From positions 1-32,531 of the forward strand of contig JACQXL010000073.1 in assembly GCA_016208805.1 (NCBI GenBank): a stretch of DNA of 32,531 nucleotides. The letters are read 5' to 3'. This DNA is from Planctomycetota bacterium (GTDB lineage Bacteria; Planctomycetota; MHYJ01; JACQXL01). A program made the translations under genes and the position numbers. Under the pieces are notes generated by a model. It made no database searches. It had not been told where the DNA came from and saw only the letters and a list, made by a program, of their open reading frames with translations. Below are positions 176 to 32,531 of this stretch, one piece after another (the first letter of the stretch is position 1; each line of letters opens with the position of its first letter).

Positions 176-907
176 CTAGTTCACCTTTACCCAAACGACC
201 GGCCAGGCCCAGAGGACGTCCGTTTCCCGGACCATCAGCGGCTCAAACCGGGGGTTAAAGAAGCGCAGGACTGCCATATCGCCGTCCAAACGGTTGAGTT
301 CGGCCAGATAGGTGCGAAAGTCGGACAGGGTCAGCAGGATAATATCGCCGAGGTAGGGTTGTTTCTGGGGTGAGATGACAAAGAACGCACCAGGCCGGAA
401 GGGCGGATAGAGGGCATCGTCCTGGAGCCGGATGCCAAAGGCGTCCGGGTCGGTCAGTCCAGCTACAGCAGGGTAGTTCTCAGATGCCTGGGTCTGGCGC
501 CAGCCGGGTGCGCCGAACTGGTTATTAACCGTTCCGCCGGAAGTGATGGCAAAGACCGGGATAAGGGGAGTCGGTCGGTCTCCCCCGACATAACTCGGGG
601 TCGGCTGGTCTTCCGGTCTTCCGGTCTGACCATCTGGCTGGTCCTCTCCCGCCATAAGTGGCGGGATCTCCACCGACTGATGTATCAGGTTTATCAGGTC
701 TTGAACCGGCACCTGTAAGAGTTCAGACAGTGATTTAAGTTTGTCGTTATCAATCTTGCTGGGGTAGCGGCCGTTGAGGAGGTCAACTAGGTAACTATAG
801 TTTATGGAGAGTTTCTCAGCCAGGACCTTCTTGGGGATGCCGCTCTTGATGCGGAGGTCTTCTATGATTTCCCAGGGGTATTTTGGTTTTTGCTCTTCCA
901 TAACCAC
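176..907 (-). CDS. XRE-family HTH regulator with C-terminal LexA/CI (S24 peptidase)-like domain that appears to lack the catalytic Ser
   Basis: 243-aa ORF. The N-terminus IKSGIPKKVLAEKLSINYSYLVDLLNGR is a Cro/C1-type helix-turn-helix. A Pro/Gly-rich linker follows. The C-terminus LQDDALYPPFRPGAFFVISPQKQPYLGDIILLTL...AVLRFFNP follows the S24 beta-barrel pattern (GDSM..GD.v.v) by eye, but has Ala where the nucleophile Ser is expected. The ORF-track start at 907 is GTG; an ATG at 901 is an alternative start. Confidence 0.75.
   Translation of the reverse strand: MVMEEQKPKYPWEIIEDLRIKSGIPKKVLAEKLSINYSYLVDLLNGRYPSKIDNDKLKSLSELLQVPVQDLINLIHQSVEIPPLMAGEDQPDGQTGRPEDQPTPSYVGGDRPTPLIPVFAITSGGTVNNQFGAPGWRQTQASENYPAVAGLTDPDAFGIRLQDDALYPPFRPGAFFVISPQKQPYLGDIILLTLSDFRTYLAELNRLDGDMAVLRFFNPRFEPLMVRETDVLWAWPVVWVKVN
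648..677 (-). repeat. 30-nt shared hairpin-containing segment, copy in the regulator linker (reverse orientation)
   Basis: The reverse complement of 648-677 is GTCGGTGGAGATCCCGCCACTTATGGCGGG, identical to 3393-3422. It is translated in frame as SVEIPPLMAG in both genes. The core is CCCGCC-ACTTAT-GGCGGG, a 6-bp stem. Confidence 0.85.
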
Positions 908-10152: not shown

Positions 10153-10164
10153 TATATGTAGTTC

Positions 10165-13100
10165 ATGAGAAATGAGCCACAGATTAAGTTAGGTGGCTGG
10201 CGAGCCGTTAAGTTCATCGGGCTTGCGGCCGGTATCGTCTTTATTGCCTTCCTGCTTGCCTATACGGCCAGCCAGAACTGGCATTTCGTTGACCCGGCCA
10301 CGGACTATGTGCTTGATTCAACCACGGACACCATTTCCGGATTGCCCAATATAGAACTGGTCACCCCCTCTTCCATAGCCCGGCTGACTCTGCATCCGGG
10401 CCGGACCTATACGGCCGAGACCAAGAGCGGCGGGGACTATAACTTTGATAGCGGTCTATACGGGTCATATCTAACTGCAACCGTCCCGGAGAAGGTTGTC
10501 CGGCTGGCTAACTCCGCTAACGGTGGCTACGGCAACTTTGACCCGGCGGCCGGGCTGGCCAGCGGGTCGTTCCTGTCCCGGATATTTGACTCCACCGTAG
10601 CCGGCTCAAACTGGACCAATATCGGCTGGACGGATAAGCGGTCTGAGACGGCTGAGGCATCGGCGGCCCTGACCGCGACTATTTCCGCCCTCTATCGTTT
10701 CAACACGGCACCGGGCATTATAGCCGATTCCGGCACTTATGCCAATACGTTGGCTAACAGCGGCGCGGCGCTCAGCGGGGTCCAGCCGAATGACGCCAAC
10801 GGCGAGGGGTTGTATAACCAGTCTGGCTATTTTAACGGCGCCAGTTATCTTTCAAGGGCAGACGCCGGCTCAACAAATCTTAACTTCGGACAGGATAGTT
10901 TTTCAATGGAATGCTGGGTCAAGACCAGTATGACCGGCAAAGGTCCGATAATAAATAAACGGGCCGCCGTAATTACAGGCACCCTGGGATGGGAAATCGG
11001 GTTGAACTATGATGACACACCGGCAAATGCCGGCAAGCCCTATTTAGCCATTATCTTGCAGGACTATGACGTTGAATTGTCACAGGCGGCCAATTTCCCC
11101 CAGTATCTTTCGGCCGGCAGGCCGGTTAACGATAACCAGTGGCACCATATCGCGGCCTATCGCCAGATAGACCAGATAGCGATATATGTGGACGGTATCT
11201 TTCAAGGCAAGTCAGGGCTGGATAACCCGGCCGCTAACGTAAATAATGCCGCCACAATGTATATCGGCTGGGCGACTGAAACTTATGAAGGAACAACAAC
11301 GAATTACTATTATACCGGTAAACTGGACGAATTAATCCTCTATAAAGGCAGGGTGTTGACAGAATCAGAGATTTTCAGTCGTTATGAACGGGGTTTAGGC
11401 GTGAAATTCAGGGTCAGGGCGAGCGATACGGCCACATCCGGCTGGACGGATGCGGTGCCGGCCTGGTCAGGCGAGATTATCAATTCATCTACAACGCCAT
11501 CAAGCGTAACCACGGTCAGCGGCCGGTATTTCCAGTATCAGGCGGTATTAGAAAGCCGCAACCGCGGCGCCACGCCGATGCTGACCCAGGTGGCAGTTTC
11601 CGGCCCGGCCAGTCCGGCCGATAAGACTGATGACGGCTCACAATCGGTAGAGTTTGACCCGGAGCAGATATATACGAATCCGTGGGGGACGAGCAGACGT
11701 ACGATGACGGTCTATCGGACGGACTATATAAGTGTAAAGCCGAGGACGGACCTAACCGCGGCCCGGGCCGGCACGGAAGATGGCATCACGGCTTTGTGGC
11801 GGTTGGAAGGCAATACTACTGATTTAGCCGGAGGTGATAATCCGGCCATTCTTATGAATAGCCCGGTCTACAGCACGACCGTAGTGGCGCTCAGTCCGTC
11901 CAACACTAATTCTATCCAGTTGGATGGGGTGAATCAGTATCTGACCGCGGCGCATAGCGCCAATATCGCCTTTAAGTATGACCATACACTAGAGGCCTGG
12001 ATATATCCGACTGTTGCCCTTGATGCCTCGGGCTTGCCTTCTCAACTGGCGCCGGCAATGACTATTTTGGACAAAGGCGGCTATAAGGTATGGTGGGATA
12101 ACAAATCGGGCAAGATGCTCTATGAACTGCAGGATGTGACGGCAAAGGGGGTATGGCAGAAGGATAATCTGTTTAAGAATGCTACGGCCAATTTCCAGTC
12201 CGCCACGCCGTATTTTTCAGAGTTGATACAGTGTATGGCGGTCTATCGGGGTAAACTATATGTTGGGGTATCAGGCAATTTTGTTGCGACGACTACTACT
12301 AATGGTGAGGCAAGAATTTATGTCTATGACGGCAAGACATGGGAATTAGCATATGACCCAGTTCCATTAGGTGCATTATTAGACTATGAACGAGTGCTAT
12401 GTATGACAGTTGCTTATGATAGACTATACTGCGGATTAGGGATTACTATTGATGATGGTGACCTTGCCATATTTGATGGCACAAATTGGACTATGAATTA
12501 TGGACTTGATGCTGCAGATTACGAAGGTGTTTATTCGCTGGGTACCTGGAAGGACGGCGGGACAGAGTATCTCTATGCGGGAGTAGGGTATAGCGGTAAC
12601 GATGCTGATGTATATTATATTAACAGCGCCGGCACCTGGACACAGGTTGCAAATAACTTGGGCAATGATGATGCCGTAACAAGTTTGTATGTATTTAAGA
12701 ATAAACTCTATATCGGGACAGGACTTGATAGAGATGAGGCAATTGTCTATCGTTATGATACGCCGCCTACTGTAGCGACTGCACCGGTCACGGTTTATAA
12801 CCCGTCTGCCACCGAGGCGTTAGAGAATGTGCAGTGTATGACCGAATATAATGGTAAGATATATGTGGGGTTTGACGGCAATGCGGCCGGCGATGCGGAC
12901 TACGCAGTCTCTGACTCGGGCGATTCCGGCACCTGGACGCTCTATAAATATAACCAGATTGGCGGGGTCGGCACGTTTGAGGGTATCTATACGATGTTCA
13001 CCTATGACGGCAAGTTATATGCCGGGTTAGGCACATCAGCCGGTGATTGCCAACTCTGGTATACGACAGATGGAACCGGTTGGACGCGCGATGATGACCT

Positions 13101-16100
13101 GTATGGGATTGCCGGCGGATACCGGACCATCAAGAGTCAGGCCGAATATATGGGCAGATTATATTTAGGGTTCGGCAGCGCCCTCTATAACGCAACCACT
13201 TCTATTGCTATCACGGCCGGCGAACCATATGACCTATTCTATCTCCAGAGCAAGGGTTATATCGCTTCTACGATGAATTCGTTCAACGTCAATACCTGGT
13301 ATCATATTCAGGCGGCCTATGACCGCTCTGTTAACAGAAAGATGTATTTGCGGATTTCCGACACGGGCGGACTGATAGAAGAAAACACGGTTCGGGCAAA
13401 TATGATATTAAATGCGTCGTCCGTGCCGTTGTATATCGGCGCCGACCGGCAATACGGCAGGTATTTCAGGGGGTTAATAGACGAGGTCGGGCTGTTTAAT
13501 ACGGCCTATATCGGCGCTCATCAGGGGCCGGCCTATTACGAATCGGGCGAGATTGCCGCGCCCAATAACGGTTATGTCAGATGGAATAATATCGCCTGGG
13601 GCGAGCAGGAACGATATGGTGATGAACTGACGGCTGAATCAGGTGTGGAGATGGCCGGTCTCTGGCACCTGAATAATAACACCATAGACGAGTTCGGTAG
13701 CACGACCGACCCGGCAAATACCCTGCTTGATTTTACTGCCGGGGCCAAGTTCGGGGGTTATGCGGGTTGGTTTAACGGGACAAATAATAAGATAGCCGTG
13801 TGGGATGGCGCGGCGTATAACTGGACATCAGCCGGGCTGACCGTAGAGGCGTGGGTCAAGAACAGCACGATGTTGCCGCAGTCAATCGTGGCCAAGGGCG
13901 CCGGCACGACATTAGAATTCCGGCTCTATATAGAAAACGATTACCGGCCGGCCTTCTGGGTATCAAGTGGTGGCTCAGGTAAATCACCACTTGCCTACGG
14001 GCCTGTTGCCCGAACAGTTACGGATAATAGGTGGCATCATATTGTCGGGGTCTATGACGGCACATCGGTTAAGGTCTTTGTGGACGGTGAGTCGGGAGGT
14101 TCCGTTAGTTATAGCGGCACGGTCTATAACGGCGCTGATGCGGTATGGATTGGCTCCGACCAGGAAGGTGAGTGGTATTATACCGGCGTGATAGACGAGG
14201 TGGCCATATATCGGAGGCCGTTACAATCTGCCGAGGTTCTATCCAGATACCAGAAGGGCGTTACTTCTCTTAAGTTGAGGGTAAGTGTACGGGACGGGGG
14301 CGGTTACGGCTCGTGGGTCGGGCCGAACGATACGGACAGCGATTTTAAGATAGGCCAGAGTGAAGTAATCAGCGGGACTACAGGGCTGGTCGGGCGGGCT
14401 ATCAAATACCGGGCTGAGTTCACCACAGCCAACCCCCTCTACCCGGCTCGGTTTGACTTACTTAAACTCGCCCACCAGCCATATTATTCCAACCAGTCGC
14501 CCTGGGTAAGTAATTCCAGCGGCTGGGGTTATACCGGATTGGCCGGTTTCTTTGAGACACGGGGAAGCGGCTCGGCAACAGTAGATAATGTCAGATACCA
14601 AATCTCGCATCCGGCTAATCCGGCCGAGTGGTGGTGGTATAATGCCGGCTGGCAAATCGCTACTTCATCGGTAATGTCTTCCACCTGGCAGACCATCAAT
14701 GATAATATTTATACCTTTGACCCTGATGGCGCGCCTCAAAGCGGTAATTTCTATTTCAAGGCATTCCTGGTTTCTAACGGTATAGAATATGTGGCGTTGG
14801 ACGAGGTCAAGGTGGCAGACCAGTCGGTTACGGTTACCTATCCGAACGGCGGCGAGCAATGGGCATTAGGCGAACAACGGCAGTTCCAGTGGAGCAAGAA
14901 AGGGGCGGTGACTGCGGTTAAGATAGAACTGGCCAGAAACGGGCTGGGTGGTTCGTGGGAAGTGATTACCGATACGGTAGATGCCGCGGCTGGGGTCTAT
15001 ACATGGACCGTCACCTCGCCGGTTTCCACGACCTGTTATGCCCGGATAACATCCCTGCAGGATGCCAGCGTCTGGGACACCTCAAATGCTCAATTTGAGA
15101 TAAAAGAGGTTTCGGGCAAGAGCATAACAATCGGTTCGCCCAGCGCCGGAGATAATTGGATAGCCGAAGACCCGCATTCAATTACATGGACGACATTAGG
15201 CGGGGTGGGCAATGTTACCATCCAGTATTCCAAGAGCGGTAATTTTGATGACACTAAAACACTGGTAACCGGCATACCAAATACTACCACAATTTATAAC
15301 TGGACGCCGGTATCTTCGGATATTTCATCGGCGGCCGGCGGTAAGATAAGAATAATGGAAGACGATGGCTCGCCTACTACCGATTCAAACGCTTTCTTTG
15401 TCAAGGCCGGTTTTAATATCACCGTTCCGAATACTTATCCTATTTCCTGGGTGGTGGGTACAAACCAGACGATTCAGTGGTTCACCAAGGGCGATTCCGG
15501 CGATGTCAAGTTGGAATATTCCAGAGATGACTTCAATAGTGATATTAATATAATTACGCCGGCTATTTCCAATTCGCCCGGCGCGGGCAGTTATGTCTGG
15601 ACGCCGATTCCGATTACCACGACCTTAGGCGCGGCGTATAATGTCAAGGTCAGGATTAAAACGCTTGACGCAACCAAACCGCCCGCAGAAGATAAGTCTG
15701 ATAACGGTTTCAAGATATGCGGCAGTATCACGGTGGGACAGCCCAATGGCGGCGAGACGCTTTATGTCAACGATATGGGTAATGTCATTACCTGGACCAA
15801 GGTCGGCAATATCGTCAACTACCAGATAAGGTATTCAACAAACGGCGGGACGTCCTGGCCTTATAATATCGTGGCATCCACCGGCGGTACAGATTTAGGC
15901 GGTGGGGTGCGCGGGTTTACCTGGGAGCCCATCCCGGATACCATCTCTCCTGACTGCCGGGTAAAGATTACCGATGCGGACGACGGCCCGTTCTATGAGG
16001 TGCTGGATACCTCTAATGCTAATTTCACTATAAAGGGTAAGTTAGCGCTAACTACTCATCCGGGTCAGGCATCGGGTCAGGAATTCGTGATAGATTCAAC

Positions 16101-25100: not shown

Positions 25101-28100
25101 TCTTGATACGCCTAATGTGGCCGCAGATTTTGAGGTGGGCGATACAGTGGTATTCCAGTGGACCGCCACCGGACCGATTGCGCAGGTTAATATCCTCTAT
25201 TCAACCGATGACTTTGCAACCGTCACCAAGACATTATTCAGCGGACTGGCATCAGGTTCAGGGACAAAGACCCAGAACTGGACAATACCAAATGATTTTG
25301 CCGACCTAACTACTTCAAGAATCATCAGATTCAAAGTGGTAGATTCGTCAGATAGCGCGGTTTATGACAATTCTGATGCGATGTTCAAGATAAAGGGTAA
25401 ATTCCAGGTAATTGACCCGAATTCCAGCAACCTGACCTGGCTGGTGGGCGAATTAAGAACCATCACTTGGACTACCACCGGCAAGATTGCGTCCGTGAAT
25501 GTGCAGTACAGCAAGGACGGCACCACAAACTGGACGACCTTCAGTAATGGTAGTGGCGTGCCTGACAATGCGGCTGGTAGCGGTTTAGGAACCACGGCGC
25601 TAATCGTTACCGTGCCAGATGCGATAAGTCCAACCTTCCGGGTGCGGGTGGTTAATCAGGTAGACACCGCAGTTGCCGACCCTTGCGATTATGATATCAG
25701 GATAAGAGGCCGGTTACAGATATATGACCCGATTGCCACGACCAAGTGGCTTGTAAGTAATCAGGAATTTATTAGATGGAATGTCTATGGCTCTATTCCT
25801 ACGGTAAATATTGAATACCAGGATGCCCTTGTGCCGGGTTGGATTCCGATAACCACCTCAGCACCGGCCACAAACACCCCGACCACCGGACAATACCTGT
25901 GGGCAATTCCTAACTTTATCAAAGATTCTGTCCAGGTCAGGGTGGTGCAGAGTGACGATGCGGCAGTATTTAGCGAGTCAGCCCAGTTTAAGATAAGAGG
26001 TAAAGTCAGGATAGATACGCCAAACGGCGGAGAAACATATTATCCGTATGACGCAGTTTATCAGACGACTAAATACCCAATAACCTACACGGTTACCGGT
26101 TCGGTATCACAGGTAAGACTGGAATATTGTCCGGATGGCGTGGCAGGTCCGTGGACGGTCATAGCGCTGATTAATCCGCCTTCCGCAGGTACTTATACTT
26201 ATATGTGGGAGGTGCCGGGGGCTTTGAATGATATAAAGGAAACCGTGCGAGTTCAGATAGTGGATACTATGGCTAACGGAGAATCTGATTACTCGGACAA
26301 TCCATTTAAGATTAAGGGTATAATGCAGGTTAGTGAACCACCTGATGCAGACGGTGTTTGGGAGGTTGGTCAATCAGGCACAATTCTGTGGAGTGTGGTT
26401 GGAGCAGTGGGTGATGTAACCTTGCAGTATCTCCAACCGGCTGATGGATTCTGGTATGATATTGCAAGCGTTTCAACCACATCGGGCGCCAATAGTTATG
26501 TCTGGGGTAGTGTGGCGGATGCGATAACCTCAACCGCGCGGGTGCGGGTAAAACCAGTGATTTCAACTAAGGCGGATATCGCCGTTTCTAACCCATTTAA
26601 GATTAAAGGACGCGTTTTAGTAACCGCTCCGACTCTTGGATATGTGGCTAAGGTGGGCGAGAGTTGCCCGATTTCCTGGGTGATTTCCGGGACGATGAAT
26701 ACGGTTACTCTTCAGTATAAAGTCGGGATAGATGCCTGGCAAGATATAACTACTGTGCCCGCCGGACTACTCGGCGGAACATATAACGGCTGGACTACAC
26801 CGGATAGGATTTCAACCAATGTCCGGGTTAGGGTCTTTGATACCTCTGTGCCGGAGGCATTTGACGACTCCGACCAGTTTGAGATACGCGGCAAACTTCA
26901 TCTGGATTATCCGTCTGATAGCGGGCTACCGGACTGGGTAATATTCGGAACTTACCCCATCACCTGGACGGCTTATGGCACTATTAATCAGGTAGAATTA
27001 AGATATGACCTTAATAATGGCAATGGACCGGACGGTAATCCGGATACGGGGGATGAATATCTAAATGTAATTACTACAACCGCTTCAGGCGCGCTAACGC
27101 ATGACTATTACTGGACTGTGCCGGATATTGCATCGGCTAATACCCGTATCAGGGTCGTGGATGTAACTAATTCTGCCGTGAAAGACGAAAGCGATTACCC
27201 GTTTAGAATCGCTGGTACTATTACTGTAGAATACCCGGGCACTGGCAATGTCTTTACCGTAGGCGACCCTATCGTGATTACCGGCACCAAAAGCAGCGGT
27301 GTTACTCAGGCGGATATCCAATACTGGAATGGCAACTTGAGTCAATATGTATCTGTGGCAATATCCGCTTCTATCGGAACCGGTTTGACCTGGTCGTATA
27401 ACTGGATTGCGCCTGACTGCCTCATGGGCGACCTACGTATCAAGGCAATATTCTCCGAAGATACAACCATCTTTGACATCGGCGACCAGTTCCGCGTCAA
27501 AGGTAACCTTACCCTCGGTCGGCCAAACGGCAACGAAGTCTTCACGGTCGGCACAACCGAACCGATTACCTGGACAATGATGGGCTCTATAATCAATGTC
27601 AATCTCTATTATTCACTGGATAATTTCGTTTCGTCGTCTAGGACCATCGCGACCGACCTTAGCGCCGTGGCCGGTTCATACAACTGGCCGGTGCCCGATG
27701 ATATTACCGCCGGCTACAGCGTTAAAATTAGAATAACGGACTCTGCTTATGAAATAGGCACCTATGACGACAGTAATAATCCATTTAAGATAAGGGGCAA
27801 AACCGAGGTTCAACCGATTACATGGACGGTTACCGGCTCAATCCAGAAAGTAAGACTAACATATACCTATGGTGAACCGGATGGCCGGACAACTGAGATA
27901 GAAATCACTCCCGACACGGCGGGAACAACTACAGGCAATACCGGCGTATACCTCTGGACCGTTCCGAACCTGATTACATCAAAAGCCAGAATCAAGGTTT
28001 ATGATAAAAACGATAATAATACCTGGGATGAAAGCGATAATACCTTTAAGACCAGAGGCAATATCACGGTTGGTTCGCCCAACGGCAACGAGGCTTGGTT

Positions 28101-31100
28101 GGTTGGCGTGGAATATCCGATTACCTGGACCACAGTAGGACCGATTGCCAATGTGGGCATTCAGGTATCCATAGACCCGGCGCATTCTACATGGGAAACA
28201 CTGGTTACTTCTACTGCTGCCGCGGCTGGTGTCTATACATGGACAGTATTAGACCGTATCTCGGCTACCGCACAAATCCGCGTCCTTGATGCCGCCGATG
28301 CAACCGTCAGGGATGATTCTAATAACGACTTCAGGATTAGGGGTCGGTTCAATGTCGTCTATCCTAATGGCGGTCAGATATTTGTAGTCGGCCAGACTAA
28401 TGTTCCGATTACCTGGACTTCCACCGGCACGATGGATACCGTCAAGATAGAGTATTCCAGGGATGACTTTAATAGCGATATTAATACCATTATTGCCTCA
28501 ACCGAGAATGATGGCAGTTACCCCTGGCCGGTTATTCCTGACGCGATTGTGTCAACCATGGCTGTAAAAATCAGGGTTTCTTCTACCACTGACTACGGCG
28601 CACGAGACGACTCCGACAGCGGATTCAAGATAAGGGGCGATTTAAACGTCCTTGTCCCAAATAACCCGGGTATTGTCTGGACTGTAGGTGAACAGAGAGT
28701 TATCCAGTGGAGCAAGACCGGCTCCATCAGCCAGGTGGAACTAAGATATTCCGATGATAATTTTGGGACTTATAACTCCATAAGTATTACTAATGCCGCG
28801 GCACTCTCTTATACCTGGACCGTGCCGGATGCGATAGGCGTAACCCCCAAGATGAAGATTCGGATTCTGGATGTTGCGGACAGCACGGTCTATGACGACT
28901 CTGATAACGCCTTTAAGATAAAAGGCAATATTACTATCGGTTCGCCTAAGATAAACGATATATTCACGGTCTATCACGCCAGTTATTACCCGACCACGCA
29001 TCCGATTACCTGGACACTAACCGGCACTATAAATAATGTCAAGATAGACTATTCTAAAGATAATTTTGCCACCAGTTGGCCGGTTGTTGCTTCTACTTCT
29101 GGTCCGGCCGGTCTATATAATTGGCCGGTGCCCGATGACATATCGTCAACCGTGCGTATCAGAATATACGATGCGGCTGATTCAACGGTCTATGTTGACT
29201 CGGATACTTTCTATATAAAGGGTAAGTTGTTTGTTACCGCGCCTCTGGCCGGTAATGCTTGGAAGGTCGGCTCTTCGCAGAATATCCAGTGGAACACCAC
29301 GGGTACTATTGCCAGCGTTAAACTTGATTACTTATCGCCGGCAGTGAACGATTGGATTAACATTACACCATCAACTACTAATACCGGTATCTTCGGCTGG
29401 TTGATACCGAATGATATTACCTATAGTAATAATGTTATTGTTCGCGTAATCAATCTATCAGACCCTAATGTTTATACCGATTCCGGTGGCTTTAAGATAA
29501 GAGGCGATTTTATAGTTGCCCAGCCCAACAGCGGTGCAGAAATATGGGAGGTCGCGACCAACCAGGTTATATCCTGGACCACCACCGGCACAATCAATAA
29601 CATAGACCTGCTCTATTCAACCGATAACTTCGGCCCGAATACCTGGACCATCTTCACCAATACGCTCAATAGCAGCCCTTACAACTGGGCTGTGCCTGAT
29701 AATGTTTCAAATAGCGTCCGGGTCAGGGTGCGCGATACCAATGACCCGAATCTGGTCTATGACGATTCCAATAACGACTTTTCTATTGTCGCCCGGATGC
29801 AGGTAACCAAGCCGTCAGCCGGTGAGAAATGGCAGGTGGGTGAAAAATACAGCGTAAAGTGGAAATGTTGGGGAACCGTGCCGAATGTCAAGATTGATTA
29901 TTCTGTTGCGCCGCCGTTCACGGTCTGGAAACCGGTCATCGCGTCATATGTTAACAACGCCAGCAATGACGGGCTGGTAGAAGGTTCATATGAATGGACT
30001 ATACCTGATGATATTTCAGAAACGGTTATTGTCCGTGTGGCGGATACCCGTTATCCATCACTGGTCTATGCCGATTCAGGACAATTCAAGATTAAGGGCG
30101 CTGTCAGAATCACCGCTCCGGTTCTTGATGATGTCTTCTATGTCTATCATCCGACCGCGAACCCGAATCCACATAATATTGTCTTCAGCGTAACCGGCAC
30201 AGGAGTTGGCGCGGTTAAGATACAATATTCCAAAGACAACTTCGCCACCACGCCGACCCTTATCGCAACTATGGCAACGGTTCAGGGTGTTAATACTTAT
30301 CAGTGGCAGGTGGACGATGCGATTGGCATAAATGTCAAAATCAGGGTAGAAAAGGAAACCGACTCCGAGACCATGGTTGATTCTGAATTCTTCATGATTA
30401 AGGGTAAATACACAGTAACCGCTCCGGGACCAGGCGCCTATATCGTCGGCTCTACCACTGCTATCCAGTGGATATCCTCCAGTACCATTTTTAATGTCAA
30501 GTTAGAATACTGGTCGCAGTCGGCCGGGAATTATGTGGTTATCCCCGGTGCCGGCAATATCCCGAACACCGGCTCATATTCCTGGCAGATACCCGACGAC
30601 ATCACCGCGGTTAACAATGTCAAGGTCAAGGTTTCTAATGCCGCTGACTCTTCAAGTTATGACGAAAGCGATGTTTCCTTTAAGATACGCGGCGATTTTG
30701 CCGTCCTGTTCCCTAATGCCGTCATAGACACCCTCCGGGTCGGCGAGGCCACGCCGGTCTCCTGGACCACCACCGGCAACATTCAGTATGTCAAGCTGGA
30801 ATATTCCACTGATGGTGGAACTACCTGGATTGACCCGCCCATAGAATCCAACCTCTTCCCTAACCCAAATACATATATTTGGACTGTGCCGGATGCCATT
30901 ACGACTACCGCCCGCTTCAGGGTGGCTGATGTGGCTGACCCAACCGTCTATGATATCTCTAACAATAACTTCAGGATTATGGGCAAGATTACGGTTAATC
31001 AACCTTCAGGTTCTGGTATTGTCTGGGTGGTCGGCACGAGCCAGAAGATTCGCTGGACCACCACCGCAACTATACCACGGGTTAAAATAGAATGGTCTGA

Positions 31101-31197
31101 AACCGACTTCTCCACGGTTTATTCCAGCACAGAGGTAGATTGTGGTCCGGCCGGCGTCTATGAGTATGACTGGACCATCCCCGGCCGGCGTCTATGA
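10165..31197 (+). CDS. Giant cell-surface protein (TM anchor, 3 LamG-like domains, beta-propeller-like insert, Ig-like repeat array); ORF interrupted at 31197 by a 34-nt tandem duplication and continuing to the window end
   Basis: 21-kb stop-free frame (7,010 codons) with recognisable domain grammar throughout. An in-frame TAG at 10159-10161 bounds the ORF upstream. No other in-frame ATG retains the TM anchor. Confidence 0.92.
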   Translation: MRNEPQIKLGGWRAVKFIGLAAGIVFIAFLLAYTASQNWHFVDPATDYVLDSTTDTISGLPNIELVTPSSIARLTLHPGRTYTAETKSGGDYNFDSGLYGSYLTATVPEKVVRLANSANGGYGNFDPAAGLASGSFLSRIFDSTVAGSNWTNIGWTDKRSETAEASAALTATISALYRFNTAPGIIADSGTYANTLANSGAALSGVQPNDANGEGLYNQSGYFNGASYLSRADAGSTNLNFGQDSFSMECWVKTSMTGKGPIINKRAAVITGTLGWEIGLNYDDTPANAGKPYLAIILQDYDVELSQAANFPQYLSAGRPVNDNQWHHIAAYRQIDQIAIYVDGIFQGKSGLDNPAANVNNAATMYIGWATETYEGTTTNYYYTGKLDELILYKGRVLTESEIFSRYERGLGVKFRVRASDTATSGWTDAVPAWSGEIINSSTTPSSVTTVSGRYFQYQAVLESRNRGATPMLTQVAVSGPASPADKTDDGSQSVEFDPEQIYTNPWGTSRRTMTVYRTDYISVKPRTDLTAARAGTEDGITALWRLEGNTTDLAGGDNPAILMNSPVYSTTVVALSPSNTNSIQLDGVNQYLTAAHSANIAFKYDHTLEAWIYPTVALDASGLPSQLAPAMTILDKGGYKVWWDNKSGKMLYELQDVTAKGVWQKDNLFKNATANFQSATPYFSELIQCMAVYRGKLYVGVSGNFVATTTTNGEARIYVYDGKTWELAYDPVPLGALLDYERVLCMTVAYDRLYCGLGITIDDGDLAIFDGTNWTMNYGLDAADYEGVYSLGTWKDGGTEYLYAGVGYSGNDADVYYINSAGTWTQVANNLGNDDAVTSLYVFKNKLYIGTGLDRDEAIVYRYDTPPTVATAPVTVYNPSATEALENVQCMTEYNGKIYVGFDGNAAGDADYAVSDSGDSGTWTLYKYNQIGGVGTFEGIYTMFTYDGKLYAGLGTSAGDCQLWYTTDGTGWTRDDDLYGIAGGYRTIKSQAEYMGRLYLGFGSALYNATTSIAITAGEPYDLFYLQSKGYIASTMNSFNVNTWYHIQAAYDRSVNRKMYLRISDTGGLIEENTVRANMILNASSVPLYIGADRQYGRYFRGLIDEVGLFNTAYIGAHQGPAYYESGEIAAPNNGYVRWNNIAWGEQERYGDELTAESGVEMAGLWHLNNNTIDEFGSTTDPANTLLDFTAGAKFGGYAGWFNGTNNKIAVWDGAAYNWTSAGLTVEAWVKNSTMLPQSIVAKGAGTTLEFRLYIENDYRPAFWVSSGGSGKSPLAYGPVARTVTDNRWHHIVGVYDGTSVKVFVDGESGGSVSYSGTVYNGADAVWIGSDQEGEWYYTGVIDEVAIYRRPLQSAEVLSRYQKGVTSLKLRVSVRDGGGYGSWVGPNDTDSDFKIGQSEVISGTTGLVGRAIKYRAEFTTANPLYPARFDLLKLAHQPYYSNQSPWVSNSSGWGYTGLAGFFETRGSGSATVDNVRYQISHPANPAEWWWYNAGWQIATSSVMSSTWQTINDNIYTFDPDGAPQSGNFYFKAFLVSNGIEYVALDEVKVADQSVTVTYPNGGEQWALGEQRQFQWSKKGAVTAVKIELARNGLGGSWEVITDTVDAAAGVYTWTVTSPVSTTCYARITSLQDASVWDTSNAQFEIKEVSGKSITIGSPSAGDNWIAEDPHSITWTTLGGVGNVTIQYSKSGNFDDTKTLVTGIPNTTTIYNWTPVSSDISSAAGGKIRIMEDDGSPTTDSNAFFVKAGFNITVPNTYPISWVVGTNQTIQWFTKGDSGDVKLEYSRDDFNSDINIITPAISNSPGAGSYVWTPIPITTTLGAAYNVKVRIKTLDATKPPAEDKSDNGFKICGSITVGQPNGGETLYVNDMGNVITWTKVGNIVNYQIRYSTNGGTSWPYNIVASTGGTDLGGGVRGFTWEPIPDTISPDCRVKITDADDGPFYEVLDTSNANFTIKGKLALTTHPGQASGQEFVIDSTTPISWNTVGTIPNVNVWYIDDFGSVKITGPISNTGGILWTITDDLNPDPNSNVRVWVENADDTTVKSQSLNAFKIKGEITVGKPVGGDTYLAYHSSYQTTTYSITWTVTGSIPFVRLEYSTTGEFGAYSTVAPPAPVIIACGATGTYNYTWQVPSVLSVACRVKVSDSADTAVYGLSQPTDFTVKGKLEVTAPISSDIWAVGDTDKIIKFKVTGNIGDARIEYLDNTSTWQPITTSFPATAGIENSYQWSSGVADVITTTARIRVRPVIAERADPSESPLFTIKTNINVYKPALNDSVYVYHPTYQPTKYPITYTYTGTVTNVKFQYSANGDAGPWTDIGTGFTNGDGTGQYNWEVPNVITSTAKVKVLDNDANHPAAEGKSQQFLIKGRLIVAYPSAGDAVTYQDNIAISWTAVGSFTPVKIEYYDGTSWVTPEITSSAASVSGTNNSYPWNIPDKDSDTCKIRVSSTDWQNISAEGGVFRIKGKVQVTTPAGGEVYVIGQNPVISGTKSTSVSAIKLEYYNDGSVSPGWETVVTSYAVAPLTTWSYSGWTVPDKISADPFSPAAKIRITDVTVAGYSDVTSTSNSFKVIGSFTITYPDAVATWGVGEPRPITWTTNGSISKVNIQWSINGVTWTNFVTNYDNNGNGTTAIGITVPDAITNTFRVRVAANTDSTVYKDSPNFVVKGRFLMTQPISTTKWLVNNQEDIKWDVWGTISKVNIYYWNQTIPDWVSITTNAPATNTVTTGQYLWTIPNLIRDDIKVKVENVDDTSVVRESDPFKIRGKVHIDVPNGGQVYYVYDTVDQPTKSPIQFTITGSITTALNLEYSIDDAVWNPIATTTVASAGVYTYQWEVPGTVPTNICKTVKVRIVDTAVEGEIDPSDANFEIRGKIFVTGPITTTVWAVGEIGNSIVWTSVGNIGSVTLQYLKDITWTNITTVASNDGTNNYLWSAGVANAISSAAKIRVVPDPAFDRASPAESPAFSIKSTITVGSPMANAVLLVDSTTPITWTYTGTVSKVNIEFNINEEVTWTAVATADTAGNGTGSYDWKVPNAISTNVNIRISDADAGHPAGTVEGPTFNIKGKLTVGAPISTSEWTTGESRAITWTANGGPFNIKLELSTDDGLSWEATPIVASYGSVSGTNTYTWNPVWDRVSSKCRIRISPTQTWQSISDVSPQFKIKGLLTVTAPSMAGQSGYLTIGQNPSITGTKSTAVTSIKIEYYNDSAIPGWETLIASHGVGVGTTWSYGLWTVPDKISADPLSPAAKIRVTDVTDAGITCSSESGTFKVCGSFTVTYPPALTVWLVGESRPITWTTNGSINNVNVQWSKDGGSNWTTFSNGTNVSNNGNGTTALTITVPDAIANTFKVRVVASGDSTVWASSPNIEVKGRLQITAPIATTIWRVGNQEYITWDVWGTISKVNIYYWNQTIPDWVSITTNAPATNTPTTGQYLWTIPNLIRDDFKVKVENVDDSSVVRESDPFKIRGKVQVNNPNGAEVYYVYDSVDQTTKYPITYTVTGAISQVKIEYLQSGITWTLISTTNATGLWMWEVPGAAADICKAVRVRVTDNINSDTADDSNADFEIRGKIFVTGPITTTVWAVGEIGNSIVWTSVGNIGSVTLQYLKAGSWYDITTVASNDGINSYLWVAPGVADAISTAAKVRVKPDETFDRANIAESPAFTIKTTITIGKPTAGESLFVDNTYTITWTYTGTVSQVKIEYNKNDEVTWTQVALVTASQKFYDWQVPDAISDNVNIRISDNDAGHPPATVESGQFYIKGQVTVGAPAFGAEWTYNESRNITWTANGGPFDVRIELSTNNGGSWEATPIVASYGSVSGTNTYPWNPVWDRVSAQCKVRVKSTGDLQNISDESEVFKIKGQLQIGYPAGGEVFVVNSSPTITGTKSTAVRYIKIECDYDDTAPGDWVTLAASYDVGAGTTWSYGGWTVLDRISANPLGPAARIRVTDVTDASITNVIATSNNFKVIGGFTVTYPTAGTTWLVGESRPITWTTNGAINAVNVQWSKDGGSNWTTFSNGANVPNNGNGTTALTITVPDAITNTFKVRVVAFSDDTVWAASPNIEVKGRLQITQPISTTKWLVDNQEEIKWDVYGSVSSVNIDYRTGLLQPWVSITTTAPATYTSGAGRYGWTIPNVIGDTLQVRVVQSNDSAVESISAQYLKIRGKVQINNPNNGTEVYYPYDAVYQTTKYPITYTVTGSVSQVRLEYCPDGVAGPWTQITLVDTPVSGTSTYLWEVPGALTDIKKTVRVQIVDTTADGESDYSDANFEIRGRVTVTSPDASATWAVGETGRTINWDGVGNIGNVTLEYLKGVSWYSIATVASSNGPNSYLWNAGTPPYVADAISTAAKIRIVPDPAFGRAITDDSDPFTIKSTLMLGKPTAGESLYVDNSYTITWTYTGTVTNVKLEYNINDEVTWTNIATVSAGAVGQGSYDWTVPNAISSNVNLRISDADAGHPAATVEGVQFFIKGQITIGSPALDAEWTKGESRAITWTANGGPFPVKIELSTNNGGSWEATPILGAYTSVSGTNSWTWNPVWDRVSSQCKIKISSTDGWQNISGLSNSFKIKGTVTVGYPAGGETFVVNNNPTITGTKSGAVTAFKIEVDYDDTAPGDWVTLAASYAVVSGSATWSYGGWTVLDRISANPLSPAARIRVTDVTDASITNIIAISNNFKVKGAISVSSPAFPDEWLVGSSQTITWSATGSVSPVNIYYSTDDFATITKTIATNVLAGSGTRIYTWPAVADNITSGYTVKVKVCASNDQDDVKGVSSIFKIKGAIEVREPSNPGIELEVGSAYTITWRTTGQPKNVRIVYYTDIIPETEIVASTPATYVPIAGVTYEGRYPNWVVPPAVSKQARIKIYDKDDNTVYDISDNVFRIKAKITVTSPNTGNEVGIVGADPGLSISWAITGTATNVKLEYTVNNGLTWTNIATVDAGATPYNWVIPDVTGIISNNCRVRVTDADAGETDILDISDNLFRIRGKLNLDTPNVAADFEVGDTVVFQWTATGPIAQVNILYSTDDFATVTKTLFSGLASGSGTKTQNWTIPNDFADLTTSRIIRFKVVDSSDSAVYDNSDAMFKIKGKFQVIDPNSSNLTWLVGELRTITWTTTGKIASVNVQYSKDGTTNWTTFSNGSGVPDNAAGSGLGTTALIVTVPDAISPTFRVRVVNQVDTAVADPCDYDIRIRGRLQIYDPIATTKWLVSNQEFIRWNVYGSIPTVNIEYQDALVPGWIPITTSAPATNTPTTGQYLWAIPNFIKDSVQVRVVQSDDAAVFSESAQFKIRGKVRIDTPNGGETYYPYDAVYQTTKYPITYTVTGSVSQVRLEYCPDGVAGPWTVIALINPPSAGTYTYMWEVPGALNDIKETVRVQIVDTMANGESDYSDNPFKIKGIMQVSEPPDADGVWEVGQSGTILWSVVGAVGDVTLQYLQPADGFWYDIASVSTTSGANSYVWGSVADAITSTARVRVKPVISTKADIAVSNPFKIKGRVLVTAPTLGYVAKVGESCPISWVISGTMNTVTLQYKVGIDAWQDITTVPAGLLGGTYNGWTTPDRISTNVRVRVFDTSVPEAFDDSDQFEIRGKLHLDYPSDSGLPDWVIFGTYPITWTAYGTINQVELRYDLNNGNGPDGNPDTGDEYLNVITTTASGALTHDYYWTVPDIASANTRIRVVDVTNSAVKDESDYPFRIAGTITVEYPGTGNVFTVGDPIVITGTKSSGVTQADIQYWNGNLSQYVSVAISASIGTGLTWSYNWIAPDCLMGDLRIKAIFSEDTTIFDIGDQFRVKGNLTLGRPNGNEVFTVGTTEPITWTMMGSIINVNLYYSLDNFVSSSRTIATDLSAVAGSYNWPVPDDITAGYSVKIRITDSAYEIGTYDDSNNPFKIRGKTEVQPITWTVTGSIQKVRLTYTYGEPDGRTTEIEITPDTAGTTTGNTGVYLWTVPNLITSKARIKVYDKNDNNTWDESDNTFKTRGNITVGSPNGNEAWLVGVEYPITWTTVGPIANVGIQVSIDPAHSTWETLVTSTAAAAGVYTWTVLDRISATAQIRVLDAADATVRDDSNNDFRIRGRFNVVYPNGGQIFVVGQTNVPITWTSTGTMDTVKIEYSRDDFNSDINTIIASTENDGSYPWPVIPDAIVSTMAVKIRVSSTTDYGARDDSDSGFKIRGDLNVLVPNNPGIVWTVGEQRVIQWSKTGSISQVELRYSDDNFGTYNSISITNAAALSYTWTVPDAIGVTPKMKIRILDVADSTVYDDSDNAFKIKGNITIGSPKINDIFTVYHASYYPTTHPITWTLTGTINNVKIDYSKDNFATSWPVVASTSGPAGLYNWPVPDDISSTVRIRIYDAADSTVYVDSDTFYIKGKLFVTAPLAGNAWKVGSSQNIQWNTTGTIASVKLDYLSPAVNDWINITPSTTNTGIFGWLIPNDITYSNNVIVRVINLSDPNVYTDSGGFKIRGDFIVAQPNSGAEIWEVATNQVISWTTTGTINNIDLLYSTDNFGPNTWTIFTNTLNSSPYNWAVPDNVSNSVRVRVRDTNDPNLVYDDSNNDFSIVARMQVTKPSAGEKWQVGEKYSVKWKCWGTVPNVKIDYSVAPPFTVWKPVIASYVNNASNDGLVEGSYEWTIPDDISETVIVRVADTRYPSLVYADSGQFKIKGAVRITAPVLDDVFYVYHPTANPNPHNIVFSVTGTGVGAVKIQYSKDNFATTPTLIATMATVQGVNTYQWQVDDAIGINVKIRVEKETDSETMVDSEFFMIKGKYTVTAPGPGAYIVGSTTAIQWISSSTIFNVKLEYWSQSAGNYVVIPGAGNIPNTGSYSWQIPDDITAVNNVKVKVSNAADSSSYDESDVSFKIRGDFAVLFPNAVIDTLRVGEATPVSWTTTGNIQYVKLEYSTDGGTTWIDPPIESNLFPNPNTYIWTVPDAITTTARFRVADVADPTVYDISNNNFRIMGKITVNQPSGSGIVWVVGTSQKIRWTTTATIPRVKIEWSETDFSTVYSSTEVDCGPAGVYEYDWTIPGRRL
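10204..10269 (+). other. N-terminal transmembrane anchor or uncleaved signal of the giant protein
   Basis: AVKFIGLAAGIVFIAFLLAYTA is preceded by basic residues (KLGGWR). No prepilin-type G/FTLIE motif and no lipobox are present. Confidence 0.7.
10801..11400 (+). other. LamG/ConA-like jelly-roll domain 1 (LamG_3-like)
   Basis: FSMECWVKTS...WEIGL...NQWHHIAAYRQIDQIAIYVDGIFQG...MYIGW...YYYTGKLDELILYKGRVLTESEIFSRYERG. A further beta-rich segment follows, ending RYFQYQAVLES..ATPMLTQVAVS. Confidence 0.75.
11782..13500 (+). other. LamG-like domain 2, split by a ~330-aa insertion
   Basis: The N-half is LWRLEGNTTDLAGG...HTLEAWIYPTV...ILDKGGYKVWWDNKSGKMLYELQD (to about 12135). The C-half is NTWYHIQAAYDRSVNRKMYLRISD...LYIGADRQYGRYFRGLIDEVGLFN (13221-13500). 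Confidence 0.6.
12220..13190 (+). other. Beta-propeller-like repeat region (6-7 blades) inserted in LamG domain 2
   Basis: A blade motif recurs every ~45-50 aa: VYRGKLYVGVSG, AYDRLYCGLG, TEYLYAGVGY, FKNKLYIGTG, YNGKIYVGFDG, YDGKLYAGLG, YMGRLYLGFG. Each is followed by ..Y.YDG..W-type strands. The DNA is visibly more AT-rich than the flanking LamG halves. Confidence 0.5.
13651..14259 (+). other. LamG/ConA-like jelly-roll domain 3
   Basis: LWHLNNNTIDEFG...LTVEAWVKNS...NRWHHIVGVYDGTSVKVFVDGESGG...VWIGSDQEGEWYYTGVIDEVAIYRRPLQSAEVLSRYQKG. A beta segment follows, ending GRAIKYRAEFTTANPLYPARFDLLKLA. Confidence 0.75.
16333..22641 (+). repeat. Three complete tandem copies of a 7-domain super-repeat (2121, 2106 and 2082 nt)
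   Basis: The unit order a-g recurs with starts at 16333, 18454, 20560 and 22642. a = YVYD..QTTKYPITYTVTG. b = VWAVGE..I.W.SVGNIG.VTLQYL. c = ITWTYTGTV. d = ITWTANGGPF...SWEATPI. e = NP.ITGTKS.AV. f = RPITWTTNGSI. g = I.WDVWGTISKVNIYY. Confidence 0.85.
22642..26610 (+). repeat. Fourth super-repeat copy interrupted by a 4-domain insertion, plus a partial fifth copy
   Basis: Domains a-e lie at 22642-24177. Unrelated domains lie at 24178-25398. Domains f-g lie at 25399-26001. Domains a-b occur again at 26002-26610. Confidence 0.75.
24178..25398 (+). other. 1,221-nt (4-domain) block inserted between domains e and f of super-repeat copy 4
   Basis: The domains start AISVSSPAFPDEW, AIEVREPSNPGIE, KITVTSPNTGNEV and KLNLDTPNVAADF. 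The first and fourth share YSTDDFAT[IV]TKT. The length is an exact multiple of 3. Confidence 0.7.
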
Positions 31198-31214
31198 GTA
31201 TGACTGGACCATCC
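31147..31214 (+). repeat. Exact 34-nt tandem duplication that breaks the giant ORF (+1 shift)
   Basis: CCGGCCGGCGTCTATGAGTATGACTGGACCATCC occurs at 31147-31180 and again at 31181-31214. The downstream domain continues perfectly in the +1 frame. Confidence 0.95.
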
Positions 31215-31663
31215 CGATGGCAATGCTCAGACCCCATTCCAACTGGAAGGTCAGGATTTCGGATATCAGATATCCGTATCCGGCGGTATATGATGATTCT
31301 AATAACGGCTTCAAACTCCGGGGTGATTTCGCCTGGCTCAATCCAGTCGGTAACGAAATATGGGCTGTCGGCGACCCCAGAACCATCTCCTGGACCACCA
31401 CCGGTCCAATCAATAACGTCAAGCTCCAATATACCAGAGACAACTGGGGTAGCGTTCGTAACATCCTGACCAATGCAGATACCAATGATACGATGGCAAA
31501 TGACGGATATTATAACTGGTCTGTGCCTGACTTCATCACCACGGATATCAGGGTAACGTTAAAGATTACCGATGCCAATGACCCGACGGTCTATAAACTT
31601 ACTCCGATAATCTCACCAAACACCGGGACACTCAAGATTCGCGGTACACGGATATCAGGGTAA
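31181..31663 (+). CDS. Continuation of the giant protein (frame 2 segment between the two duplications)
   Basis: PAGVYEYDWTIPMAMLRPHSNWKVRISD...DFAWLNPVGNEIWAVGDPRTISWTTTGPINNVKLQY... keeps the same Ig-like grammar. It ends at a TAA created by the 107-nt duplication. Confidence 0.8.
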   Translation, partial: PAGVYEYDWTIPMAMLRPHSNWKVRISDIRYPYPAVYDDSNNGFKLRGDFAWLNPVGNEIWAVGDPRTISWTTTGPINNVKLQYTRDNWGSVRNILTNADTNDTMANDGYYNWSVPDFITTDIRVTLKITDANDPTVYKLTPIISPNTGTLKIRGTRISG

Positions 31664-31754
31664 CGTTAAAGATTACCGATGCCAATGACCCGACGGTCTA
31701 TAAACTTACTCCGATAATCTCACCAAACACCGGGACACTCAAGATTCGCGGTAC
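31541..31754 (+). repeat. Exact 107-nt tandem duplication causing a second frame break (+2 shift)
   Basis: 31541-31647 is identical to 31648-31754 (ACGGATATCAGGGTAACG...AAGATTCGCGGTAC). Together with the 34-nt duplication it returns translation to the original frame. Confidence 0.95.
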
Positions 31755-32531
31755 GCTCTCAGTTAGTGAGCCGGCGGCCGGACGCATCTGGCTGTATAAC
31801 ACCAGCCAGAATATCCTCTGGAATTCATTAGGTTCTATCAGTGCTGTCAAGCTGGACTATTCTAAAGATAATGGAACAACCTGGGTTACCCCGCCTATTG
31901 AAGCAGCCCGGGCAAATAATAATGGTCCTAATTCCTATTCCTGGCTTGTGCCTGATACGATTGTGCCTGATTTCAGATGTCTGATTCGTCTTACCGATGT
32001 GAGTGATTCTACTATATCCGCCACCTCTGGTGCATTCAAGATTCGTGGAGATATCTCCGCGGTCTTCCCAACTACCCCTGACCTTACTCTCTATGTGGGT
32101 GAATCCAGGACCATTACCTGGACAACATCAGGCACGATTCCTTTCGTTAAGATAGAGTATTCTATGAATGACGGGTCAAGCTGGGTTACGCCTCCTATCG
32201 CCGAGTCAACCAGTAATACTAATTCCTATCCCTGGACCGTGCCGGATGCGATTACTAATACGGTCAAGATTCGTGTGGCTGATGCAGCCGACCTTTCGGT
32301 CAATGGTGTCTCTATGAGTTTTAAGATTATGGGCAGGGTGCTGGTCAACCAGCCGTCGGATATCGGTCTTGCCTGGGTTGTCGGCACGACCCAGAAGATT
32401 CGCTGGACCACCACCGCAACTATACCACGGGTTAAAATAGAATGGTCTGAAACCGACTTCTCCACGGTTTATTCCAGCACAGAGGTAGATTGTGGTCCGG
32501 CCGGCGTCTATGAGTATGACTGGACCATCCC
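31648..32531 (+). CDS. Continuation of the giant protein (frame 1), open at the window end
   Basis: Hand translation gives TDIRVTLKITDANDPTVYKL...KIRGTLSVSEPAAGRIWLYNTSQNILW...KIRGDISAVFPTTPDLTLYVGESRTITW...KIMGRVLVNQPSDIGLAWVVGTTQKIRWTTTATIPRVKIEWSETDF...YEYDWTIP with no stop. Confidence 0.8.
32391..32531 (+). repeat. 141-nt exact copy of 31041-31181, terminating the window
   Basis: Base-for-base identity at an offset of 1350 nt. The identity starts after a single G/C mismatch at 31040/32390 and runs to the last base of the window. Confidence 0.95.

Follow-up and report, generated by a model that had tools for sequence, protein, structure and literature searches.

A putative giant Ig-repeat surface fibre with a LamG/propeller head, encoded next to a secretin module in a Brocadiia-related planctomycete

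The contig JACQXL010000073.1 of the planctomycete assembly GCA_016208805.1 (32,531 nt; hereafter the window, meaning the whole stretch of DNA that was analysed) carries a giant gene that runs into the contig end; the host is a Brocadiia-related planctomycete, and the product would be an extracytoplasmic fibre of giant size. In the reading that best explains the data, to which as a whole we give a probability of about 0.5, the chain begins with a Sec-type N-terminal signal, continues with a lectin-like head of ca. 1,520 aa and then with a stalk of at least 59 immunoglobulin (Ig)-like domains of the Kre9_KNH type, and would be held at the cytoplasmic membrane by a transmembrane (TM) helix acting as a stop-transfer segment at its C-terminus, leaving the head as a free distal tip ca. 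0.2-0.3 µm out. Judging from relatives, which also suggest the tether, the missing 3' part would encode about a dozen more repeats and a C-terminal region of ca. 800 aa. The gene neighbourhood further suggests that the products of four upstream genes could form an outer-membrane passage, or a docking site, to the cell surface, while two frame breaks next to the contig end are read as artefacts. These components differ in strength; very probable on its own is an extracytoplasmic fibre that is exported by Sec and consists of a LamG/propeller head and a stalk of 59 or more Ig-like domains.

The stalk was delineated with a profile built iteratively from one repeat and using only the protein's own repeats. 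It divides aa 1557-7408 of the frame-corrected protein (see below) into 59 repeats with a period of ca. 99 aa, in exact agreement with the number of about 59 proposed in an earlier note made from the letters of the window. The consensus is V..P..G..W.VG....ITWT..G.I..V.I.Y..D....W..I.......G.Y.W.VPD.IS....RV.D..D......S..F.IKG, over a background identity among repeats of ca. 30%. On this background, a cassette of seven domains stands out in slightly more than three copies (Table 1), with partial copies at r7-r9 and r36-r39, and r59 is a 92% copy of r55. A single-repeat AlphaFold2 (AF2) model computed from a 54-repeat alignment has a predicted local distance difference test (pLDDT) score of 93 and displays an 8-strand beta sandwich, for which the PDB offers generic Ig or FN3 domains only, at a template modelling score of ca. 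0.5 and none of them close. According to this model the repeats adopt an Ig-like beta-sandwich fold, consistent with the giant extracytoplasmic beta-sandwich array with a lectin-type N-terminal region that the earlier note had described. As for its Kre9/KNH label, PF10342 (Kre9_KNH) is the top Pfam family for the repeats and close homologues of the repeat carry precomputed PF10342 matches, but the match is weak, with E<0.01 in 14 of 54 single repeats (best 1.1e-6; 21.3 bits for repeat 1). When scores are summed, PF10342 reaches 35.7 bits in the last 1,810 aa (aa ~5201-7010) and 21 bits in the middle piece, so that the gathering score of 24.6 bits is passed in the last third of the protein only, and the Pfam scan of aa 1501-3600 gave no PF10342 match. 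By extrapolation, 59 domains of 3.5-4.5 nm each would form a fibre of ca. 210-265 nm, and ca. 72 domains, as a relative introduced below (L083) suggests, one of ca. 250-325 nm; the length of more than 200 nm put forward earlier is reasonable on the same terms.

Two local features of the array are worth mentioning. At the r43/r44 junction (~27730-27780, aa ~5858-5872), r43 is without its last strands and r44 without its first, which looks like an in-frame deletion fusing adjacent repeats. Elsewhere, copies of the cassette share an exact repeat of 124 nt (18755-18878 and 20843-20966), which no other internal exact repeat outside the tail exceeds in length and which marks a place where cassette copy number could be mis-assembled.

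The head (aa 35-1556) is composed of an N-domain, three LamG/ConA-like jelly rolls and small beta domains. With Laminin_G_3 (PF13385) required to exceed its gathering score of 27.6 bits over most of the ca. 150-residue jelly roll, the triad announced in the earlier note is indeed present as three regions (61, 41 and 98 bits), with the correction that the second one is split. Its C-terminal half matches profile positions 63-144 with 41 bits and its N-terminal half positions 1-56 with a sub-threshold 15 bits. Some 380 aa separate the two halves, and seven LYxGxG...W blades occur there at a spacing of ca. 50 aa, corresponding to a propeller of ca. 320 aa. In an AF2 model this core (aa ~690-1005) has a pLDDT of 75-96, and Foldseek retrieved 7-bladed propellers for it, including the Photorhabdus fucose-binding lectins PHL/PLL and the EPTP propeller of LGI1; the LamG halves are left unresolved in the same model (pLDDT <35), the alignment being shallow. 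The same layout of a LamG interrupted by blades occurs in another protein, P0003; the sequence data describe a second LamG domain interrupted by a nested 7-bladed propeller. As far as can be judged from fold families, which are the sole basis here, the head probably serves in adhesion, aggregation or capture by binding glycans or ligands on cell surfaces.

Ahead of this region, the sole strongly hydrophobic segment detected in the giant protein by a Kyte-Doolittle scan lies at aa 14-32 and is followed by the conserved motif A(Y/W)TA-S(Q/N/E)NW(Y/H)F..P...Y.LD...GIARL. Segment and motif align with the N-termini of three distant complete relatives, P0025, P0026 and P0030, in which canonical Sec signal peptides (VWA/QSQKWDF, LYA/QVQQWDF and LFA/KIEKWDF, respectively) precede a homologous mature N-domain with the motif QxWDF..P..Y.YD...ARL. 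Because of this alignment, the segment previously taken for a TM anchor is most simply an export signal, and it is probably a Sec signal peptide cleaved after AYTA (aa 35). The former placement of the binding modules at a membrane-anchored N-terminus is not upheld by this comparison.

The opposite end of the protein can be approached through L083, a 38.7-kb metagenome contig that is collinear with aa 3979-7408 (37% identity overall, 56% in the tail). Beyond the point equivalent to the end of the window, L083 encodes ca. 13 further repeats and then a C-terminal region of ca. 800 aa, which matched no Pfam family and ends in a TM helix (WLVILIVLAFLGILSAVFFFIW) followed by a basic tail (QSHLKKAR...). 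Within this region is a PVIDVYD...GIYEY module, also found at the C-terminus of 14 of the 150 top arrays. Homology (E 3e-20) links the last ca. 250 aa to a 310-aa protein that has a gene of its own on L082, directly downstream of the array gene P0058, and that carries its own signal peptide together with the same TM helix. This points to a conserved anchor unit that would be fused to the giant in one lineage and separately encoded in another. Neither PEP-CTERM nor LPXTG sorting signals were detected in the top 150 arrays or in L083, and the C-terminal domain of the type IX secretion system (T9SS), present in 28 of these 150, belongs to other lineages, the collinear L083 having a TM helix instead. 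The missing C-terminus of the window gene is probably a membrane anchor too, with the lectin-like head distal, a solution that the earlier note had kept as a fallback. The odd polarity that it had pointed out disappears because the tether is placed at the missing C-terminus. Cleavage of the signal, C-terminal tethering and a distal head, taken jointly, are the arrangement towards which we lean. As for the genomic context of this C-terminal module, the two array genes P0079 and P0058 that carry it (L081, 10875-20878; L082, 20772-27817) both have a small gene behind them, ahead of an F-type ATP synthase operon (epsilon, OSCP, alpha, gamma, beta), with genes for an MshE-type ATPase with PilZ and for T2SSF coming next in L082.

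As assembled, the giant open reading frame (ORF) has 7,010 stop-free codons, which is not attainable by chance when 3 of 64 codons are stops. The earlier note had described an ORF without a stop, open to the contig end across two frame breaks. It does stop within the window, yet the same domain grammar resumes past the stop codon in frame +1, and later in frame 0, up to base 32531. The two breaks are also there, and each coincides with an exact tandem duplication, of 34 nt at the first and of 107 nt at the second. In L083 neither duplication is present at the break sites and the reading is uninterrupted over both (...CGPAGVYEYDWTILTTMLRAHSSWKVRVSDIRY... and ...TLKIRGMLNVTGPAAG...); the frame obtained by removing the duplications is supported because L083 reads through both sites. 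This duplication-free reading amounts to 7,408 stop-free codons up to the last base, where the gene is still incomplete. All sequence anomalies are confined to the last 1.4 kb of the window, whose final 141 nt take part in the longest exact repeat of the gene, and the contig stops on re-entry into a repeat of k-mer length because these 141 nt are an exact copy of 31041-31181. The lengths of the two duplications (34 + 107) add up to this same value. In MEGAHIT, 141 is the largest default k, and contigs of related metagenome-assembled genomes (MAGs) bear names of the form k141_.... Both frame breaks are most likely assembly artefacts at the repeat node, the intact gene reading straight through, and the last 1.35 kb of the window is unreliable.

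Were the breaks real, the gene would be recently truncated or a decaying pseudogene, or else the shifted stretch would be tolerated with shifts that compensate each other. The assembled ORF does end at 31197, the +1 and +2 shifts, which together add 141 nt, do bring the sequence back into frame, and a pure de Bruijn assembly takes every k-mer from the reads. Both duplications, however, are free of any divergence, occur only beside the repeat node that ends the contig and sum to its length, while the 21 kb before them is intact and the reading without them matches L083 residue by residue. An artefact is accordingly more likely than two independent real mutations, and a genuine disruption of the gene is decidedly unlikely. 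Even less support can be found for a chimera or a collapse, in which the ORF would have been stitched from repeats of several genes or the number of repeats would be wrong. Such an origin would fit with the duplications and the 141-nt repeat at the contig end, with r59 being a 92% copy of r55 and with cassettes that are 55-88% identical and could have been miscounted. Internal exact repeats nevertheless do not exceed 124 nt apart from the tandem duplications and the tail, and the background identity between repeats is low. For most of the gene a chimera is unlikely because two independent assemblies are collinear with it: L083, as described above, and P0089, a partial 'LamG-like jellyroll fold domain-containing protein' from an independent Candidatus Brocadiia bacterium MAG, which covers aa 12-3170 with 69% identity. 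Since complete relatives of comparable build also exist (see below), we hold this explanation to be very unlikely and the giant ORF to be a real gene.

Relatives of the repeat were collected by an index-free profile search of representative proteins (E<1e-3), which returned 27,647 of them with arrays of 20-59 repeats and lengths of up to 6,941 aa; known complete relatives measure 5,600-6,900 aa and have 42-58 repeats. At NCBI such arrays take their name, 'Ser-Thr-rich GPI-anchored membrane family protein', from PF10342, and they are mostly from Candidatus Omnitrophota. Word-indexed homologue searches gave two fragments only with the repeat profile, and LamG-level matches only with the N-terminal 1,556 aa. 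The full head was found in a few Planctomycetota MAGs only (L001, L002 and L106), in all of which the contig ends within the giant gene. Scanning genomes with the head alignment added one further full-length head, L003, which is on the L002 contig, and an exact DNA pattern taken from L001 had no match in GTDB representative genomes. On this sampling the head is restricted to a narrow lineage, with orthologues only in Brocadiia-related Planctomycetota MAGs.

The location of the giant gene and of its parts relative to the upstream genes is given in Table 1. The first of the four genes considered here encodes an AAA_22 P-loop ATPase that reaches 178 bits with TIGR03015 in NCBIfam, under the cut-off of that model, and that has no sequence relative in the PDB. 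The 263-aa product of the second gene shows a TPEEQLLxLIE motif conserved in its N-terminal part, a single hydrophobic segment (by eye, from the alignment) and a predicted C-terminal beta domain of the secretin-binding type. Taken alone it matches T2SSC weakly (E 0.09), and a profile of three sequences found nothing in the PDB, but a profile of 11 orthologues matched Myxococcus PilP (3jc8, E 3.6e-7) and the HR domain of GspC (3oss_C, E 2.4e-4), so that by profile comparison the secretin has an inner-membrane partner with a secretin-binding domain of the PilP/GspC HR type. The third product is a secretin (Pfam scores of 141 bits for Secretin, 82 bits for two copies of Secretin_N and 26.5 bits for STN), whose matches to GspD and PilQ structures range from 1e-33 to 1e-27 (GspD 5wln, E 1e-33; PilQ 6w6m, E 7e-29). 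It remains below the NCBIfam cut-offs for PilQ (231 versus 284 bits), GspD (211 versus 351) and MshL (165 versus 250) and is not assignable to one of these subtypes by equivalog cut-offs. Neither an exact look-up of this secretin in the contig index nor a genome scan with the secretin alone returned a match. The fourth gene encodes a 1,406-aa protein with SMC-like coiled-coil matches and TPR matches at aa 1313-1387; its equivalents measure 1,224-1,629 aa in the planctomycete relatives and 356-379 aa in two loci of a distant lineage, L109 and L187. A role of the coiled coil as a ruler for fibre length was considered and rejected, as the giants of L109 and L187 have a similar length with these much shorter TPR partners.

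Table 1. Features of the window. Positions are in nt of the window; aa positions are those of the giant protein.
Feature	Position	Strand	Evidence or remark
HTH_3 + Peptidase_S24 (LexA-like) regulator	176..907	-	Pfam; divergent from secretin module
AAA_22 P-loop ATPase, MshM/GspA(ExeA) type, 310 aa	1329..2261	+	Pfam AAA_22 61 bits; TM-free
PilP/GspC-like bitopic protein, 263 aa	2417..3208	+	profile of 11 orthologues
Secretin, 573 aa	3202..4923	+	STN, two Secretin_N, Secretin
PDDEXK_3 gene, 122 aa	5046-5414		PF13366 141 bits; between secretin and coiled-coil/TPR gene
Coiled-coil/TPR protein, 1,406 aa	5458..9678	+	N-terminal hydrophobic segment aa 7-25, ~1,250 aa coiled coil, C-terminal TPR
Giant ORF as assembled	10165..31197	+	ATG start, 7,010 codons; stop codon 31195-31197
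N-terminal hydrophobic export signal	10204..10266 (aa 14-34)	+	Kyte-Doolittle scan; alignment to relatives' signal peptides
LamG domain 1	10876..11373 (aa 238-403)	+	Laminin_G_3 61 bits (profile 11-150), Laminin_G_2 34 bits
LamG domain 2, split	11923..13506 (aa 587-651 + aa 1030-1114)	+	split Laminin_G_3 matches
Nested 7-bladed beta-propeller	~12226-13182 (aa ~688-1006)	+	seven LYxGxG blades
LamG domain 3	13777..14238 (aa 1205-1358)	+	Laminin_G_3 98 bits (profile 2-150)
Array of 59 Ig-like (Kre9_KNH-type) repeats	14833..32531	+	self-profile and repeat alignment; repeat 59 cut by contig end
7-domain cassette, slightly more than 3 copies	17566..24186	+	repeats r10-r31; identity 55-88% at a lag of 7
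34-nt exact tandem duplication	31148-31181 / 31182-31215	+	frame break 1; creates stop 31195-31197
107-nt exact tandem duplication	31540-31646 / 31647-31753	+	frame break 2; brings back frame 0
Terminal 141 nt	32391-32531	+	exact copy of 31041-31181; longest exact repeat in gene

A LexA-like gene, in every case divergent from the secretin module, occurs at the position seen in the window in six planctomycete-type loci (L001, L002, L104, L106, L107 and L190), which suggests a conserved regulator of the module. The PDDEXK_3 gene is missing from the corresponding position in L001, L002 and L106. The interval separating the stop codon of the TPR gene from the giant gene holds 4.4 copies of a 21-nt unit (CGAGTTAGGGGGAACTCCCCC; 9779-9871; 95% match), each with a GGGGG-AACT-CCCCC hairpin, and further on, at 9878-9896, a terminator-like hairpin.

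The order AAA_22 / PilP-like / secretin / TPR / giant is common to the window, L001, L002 and L106, and it recurs in the distant lineage, namely in L109, where the giant is P0026 (6,203 aa), and in L187, where it is a protein of 5,838 aa with LamG_3 and Kre9_KNH domains. Between L109 and the window, the four module proteins share 51%, 25%, 39% and 33% identity, respectively. A module exclusive to the giant was nevertheless rejected, since five loci (L104, L107, L190, L188 and L191) carry the module without an adjacent giant. In L188, which belongs to Omnitrophota, the triad closes a complete operon of the type II secretion system (T2SS)/MSHA type with an MshE-type ATPase, T2SSF, pseudopilins and PilMNO, and in L191 the homologous triad neighbours MshE/T2SSF genes, the T2SS/type IV pilus (T4P) machinery being only partly present. 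Taken at the level of gene content, the module is an outer-membrane sub-complex of the T2SS/T4P type for which the giant is a recurrent, but not invariable, neighbour. L107 and L083 both come from the Joint Genome Institute metagenome 3300025152, the first with the module and no adjacent giant and the second carrying, on a contig of its own, the 3' portion of a giant gene; should both belong to the same organism, module and giant can occur unlinked. Beside the triad of L191 (5953-10920) there are also a bAvd gene and a reverse transcriptase gene resembling a diversity-generating retroelement, followed by the gene of a 1,048-aa Ig-domain protein, and such an element may act on a surface protein.

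Several of these data weigh against the overall reading. Besides the five loci just mentioned, the four planctomycete loci that bear a giant are closely related, and in three of them the shared synteny extends further (ParAB/GDT1); for this reason linkage within the planctomycete clade could simply be inherited gene order. The window has no GspE/F or pseudopilin genes; a Pfam scan of positions 1-10164 revealed no GspE/PilB ATPase, GspF/PilC platform or (pseudo)pilin. That the adjacent secretin module is the route of the fibre through the outer membrane, or its docking site there, is a tentative and rather doubtful proposal. The C-terminus of the window gene lies outside the window, and L083, from which the tether is deduced, has the modest overall identity already given and is itself missing its 5' end. 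The duplications may be present in the reads, should the contig come from de Bruijn assembly with k=141. The N-terminal hydrophobic stretch is long (ca. 18-19 aa), with Tyr or Trp at position -3, and it is unusually conserved among orthologues, so the segment could be an uncleaved signal anchor. The LamG head would then sit at the cytoplasmic membrane with the Ig array projecting outward or, if a C-terminal TM helix inserts as well, the protein would form a giant loop anchored at both ends. This would agree with basic residues before the hydrophobic core, with the lack of a canonical small residue at -3, and with the strong conservation of the TM segment and juxtamembrane motif in four orthologues, one of which has only 36% overall identity. 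The textbook cleavable signal peptides that P0025, P0026 and P0030 have at this place, ahead of a homologous mature domain, speak for cleavage, and an anchor is already supplied by the C-terminal TM helix in L083 and by the separate protein in L082, so that we regard an uncleaved N-terminus as unlikely.

Another route would be that of giant adhesins of the RTX/type I secretion system (T1SS) type such as LapA, SiiE and MpIBP, with export proceeding C-terminus first, as the earlier note had envisaged, and the N-terminus retained in an outer-membrane pore. These adhesins have a similar plan, with tens of Ig-like extenders and a ligand-binding region at one end, and the C-terminus of the window gene has not been seen. 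However, Pfam scans of the 7,010 aa revealed no RTX/HemolysinCabind match, genes of the secretin module rather than ABC, membrane fusion protein or TolC genes are found nearby, the protein has an N-terminal Sec-type signal, and the C-terminal end of L083 has a TM helix and no Pfam family. Nor do any of the top 150 arrays have RTX-type ends, 28 having the T9SS C-terminal domain and 14 the C-terminal module. With none of its features in the protein, its neighbours or the L083 C-terminus, export of this kind is extremely unlikely. Coming back to a Sec-exported, C-terminally tethered fibre, its most far-reaching version would be an undescribed secretin-dependent 'single-polypeptide pilus' of bacteria of the Planctomycetes-Verrucomicrobia-Chlamydiae (PVC) superphylum, in which a chain of more than 8,000 residues, Sec-exported and kept in the cytoplasmic membrane by a C-terminal TM module, would display its LamG/propeller lectin head ca. 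0.25 µm out. The string of Ig domains would be threaded through a dedicated secretin with the aid of MshM-, PilP/GspC- and MshN-like partners, the TM module forming part of the giant in some lineages and having its own gene in others. We consider this speculative and rather improbable.

Comparison with described systems helps to place the giant. The closest are the Kre9_KNH repeat giants, which occur mainly in Omnitrophota and include the LamG-headed P0025, P0026 and P0030. They share the repeat domain of the window giant and, for these three, the succession of a signal peptide, a homologous N-domain, several LamG and an array, theirs ending in the C-terminal module; the giants P0026 and that of L187 also have the same upstream secretin module. 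Their heads are only ca. 25% identical to that of the window, and the window lineage adds the propeller nested in a LamG and a TPR partner with a coiled coil of ca. 1,250 aa, while its collinear relative L083 differs by a fused C-terminal TM anchor. The papers found in the literature on PF10342 were all fungal. In Omnitrophota, giants of more than 30,000 aa with many TM helices and SecA-DEAD domains have been reported downstream of T2SS-like loci of more than 10 genes with gspD, gspE and gspF (West-Roberts et al. 2023, preprint, 10.1101/2023.11.21.568195). The window resembles them in its affiliation to the PVC superphylum, in a giant located downstream of GspD-type secretin genes and in a proposed role in attachment, but it belongs to a planctomycete, its sub-module counts four genes, and its fibre has one signal segment and exceeds 7,400 aa.

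The products of the four upstream genes correspond in their roles to the outer-membrane sub-complex of T2SS and MSHA-type T4P (MshM/GspA, PilP/GspC, MshL/GspD/PilQ and an MshN-type TPR protein), whereas ATPase, platform and (pseudo)pilin genes of these systems are lacking from the window. Their cargo is a pilin polymer or a globular exoprotein; the cargo candidate in the window, one giant polypeptide, is neither. In the RTX giant adhesins LapA, SiiE, MpIBP and FrhA, a tandem Ig-like extender presents ligand-binding modules far from the cell. The likeness of the window giant to these T1SS adhesins is a functional analogy only, as its polarity is reversed, with an N-terminal head, and a Sec signal is present. 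While the domain types and giant arrays of them are already in public annotation, the literature that was searched contains no description, for Planctomycetota, of the head with a nested propeller, of the C-terminal TM anchor unit or of the recurrent secretin sub-module.

For annotation, these data illustrate that exact duplications at a repeat node can mimic frame breaks near a contig end, and that an incomplete gene can make an N-terminal segment look like a "TM anchor" and the polarity of the domains look odd. More generally, giant Ig-repeat surface proteins are common in metagenomes and almost unstudied outside the T1SS/RTX and T9SS groups. Planctomycetota now join Omnitrophota in having giant genes located after T2SS-like loci, and two lineages with only 39% identity between their secretins have the same four-gene sub-module directly ahead of their LamG/Kre9 giants. 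This recurrence, together with an anchor that appears either fused or separate, provides a testable hypothesis for how such fibres may be exported and tethered in PVC bacteria.

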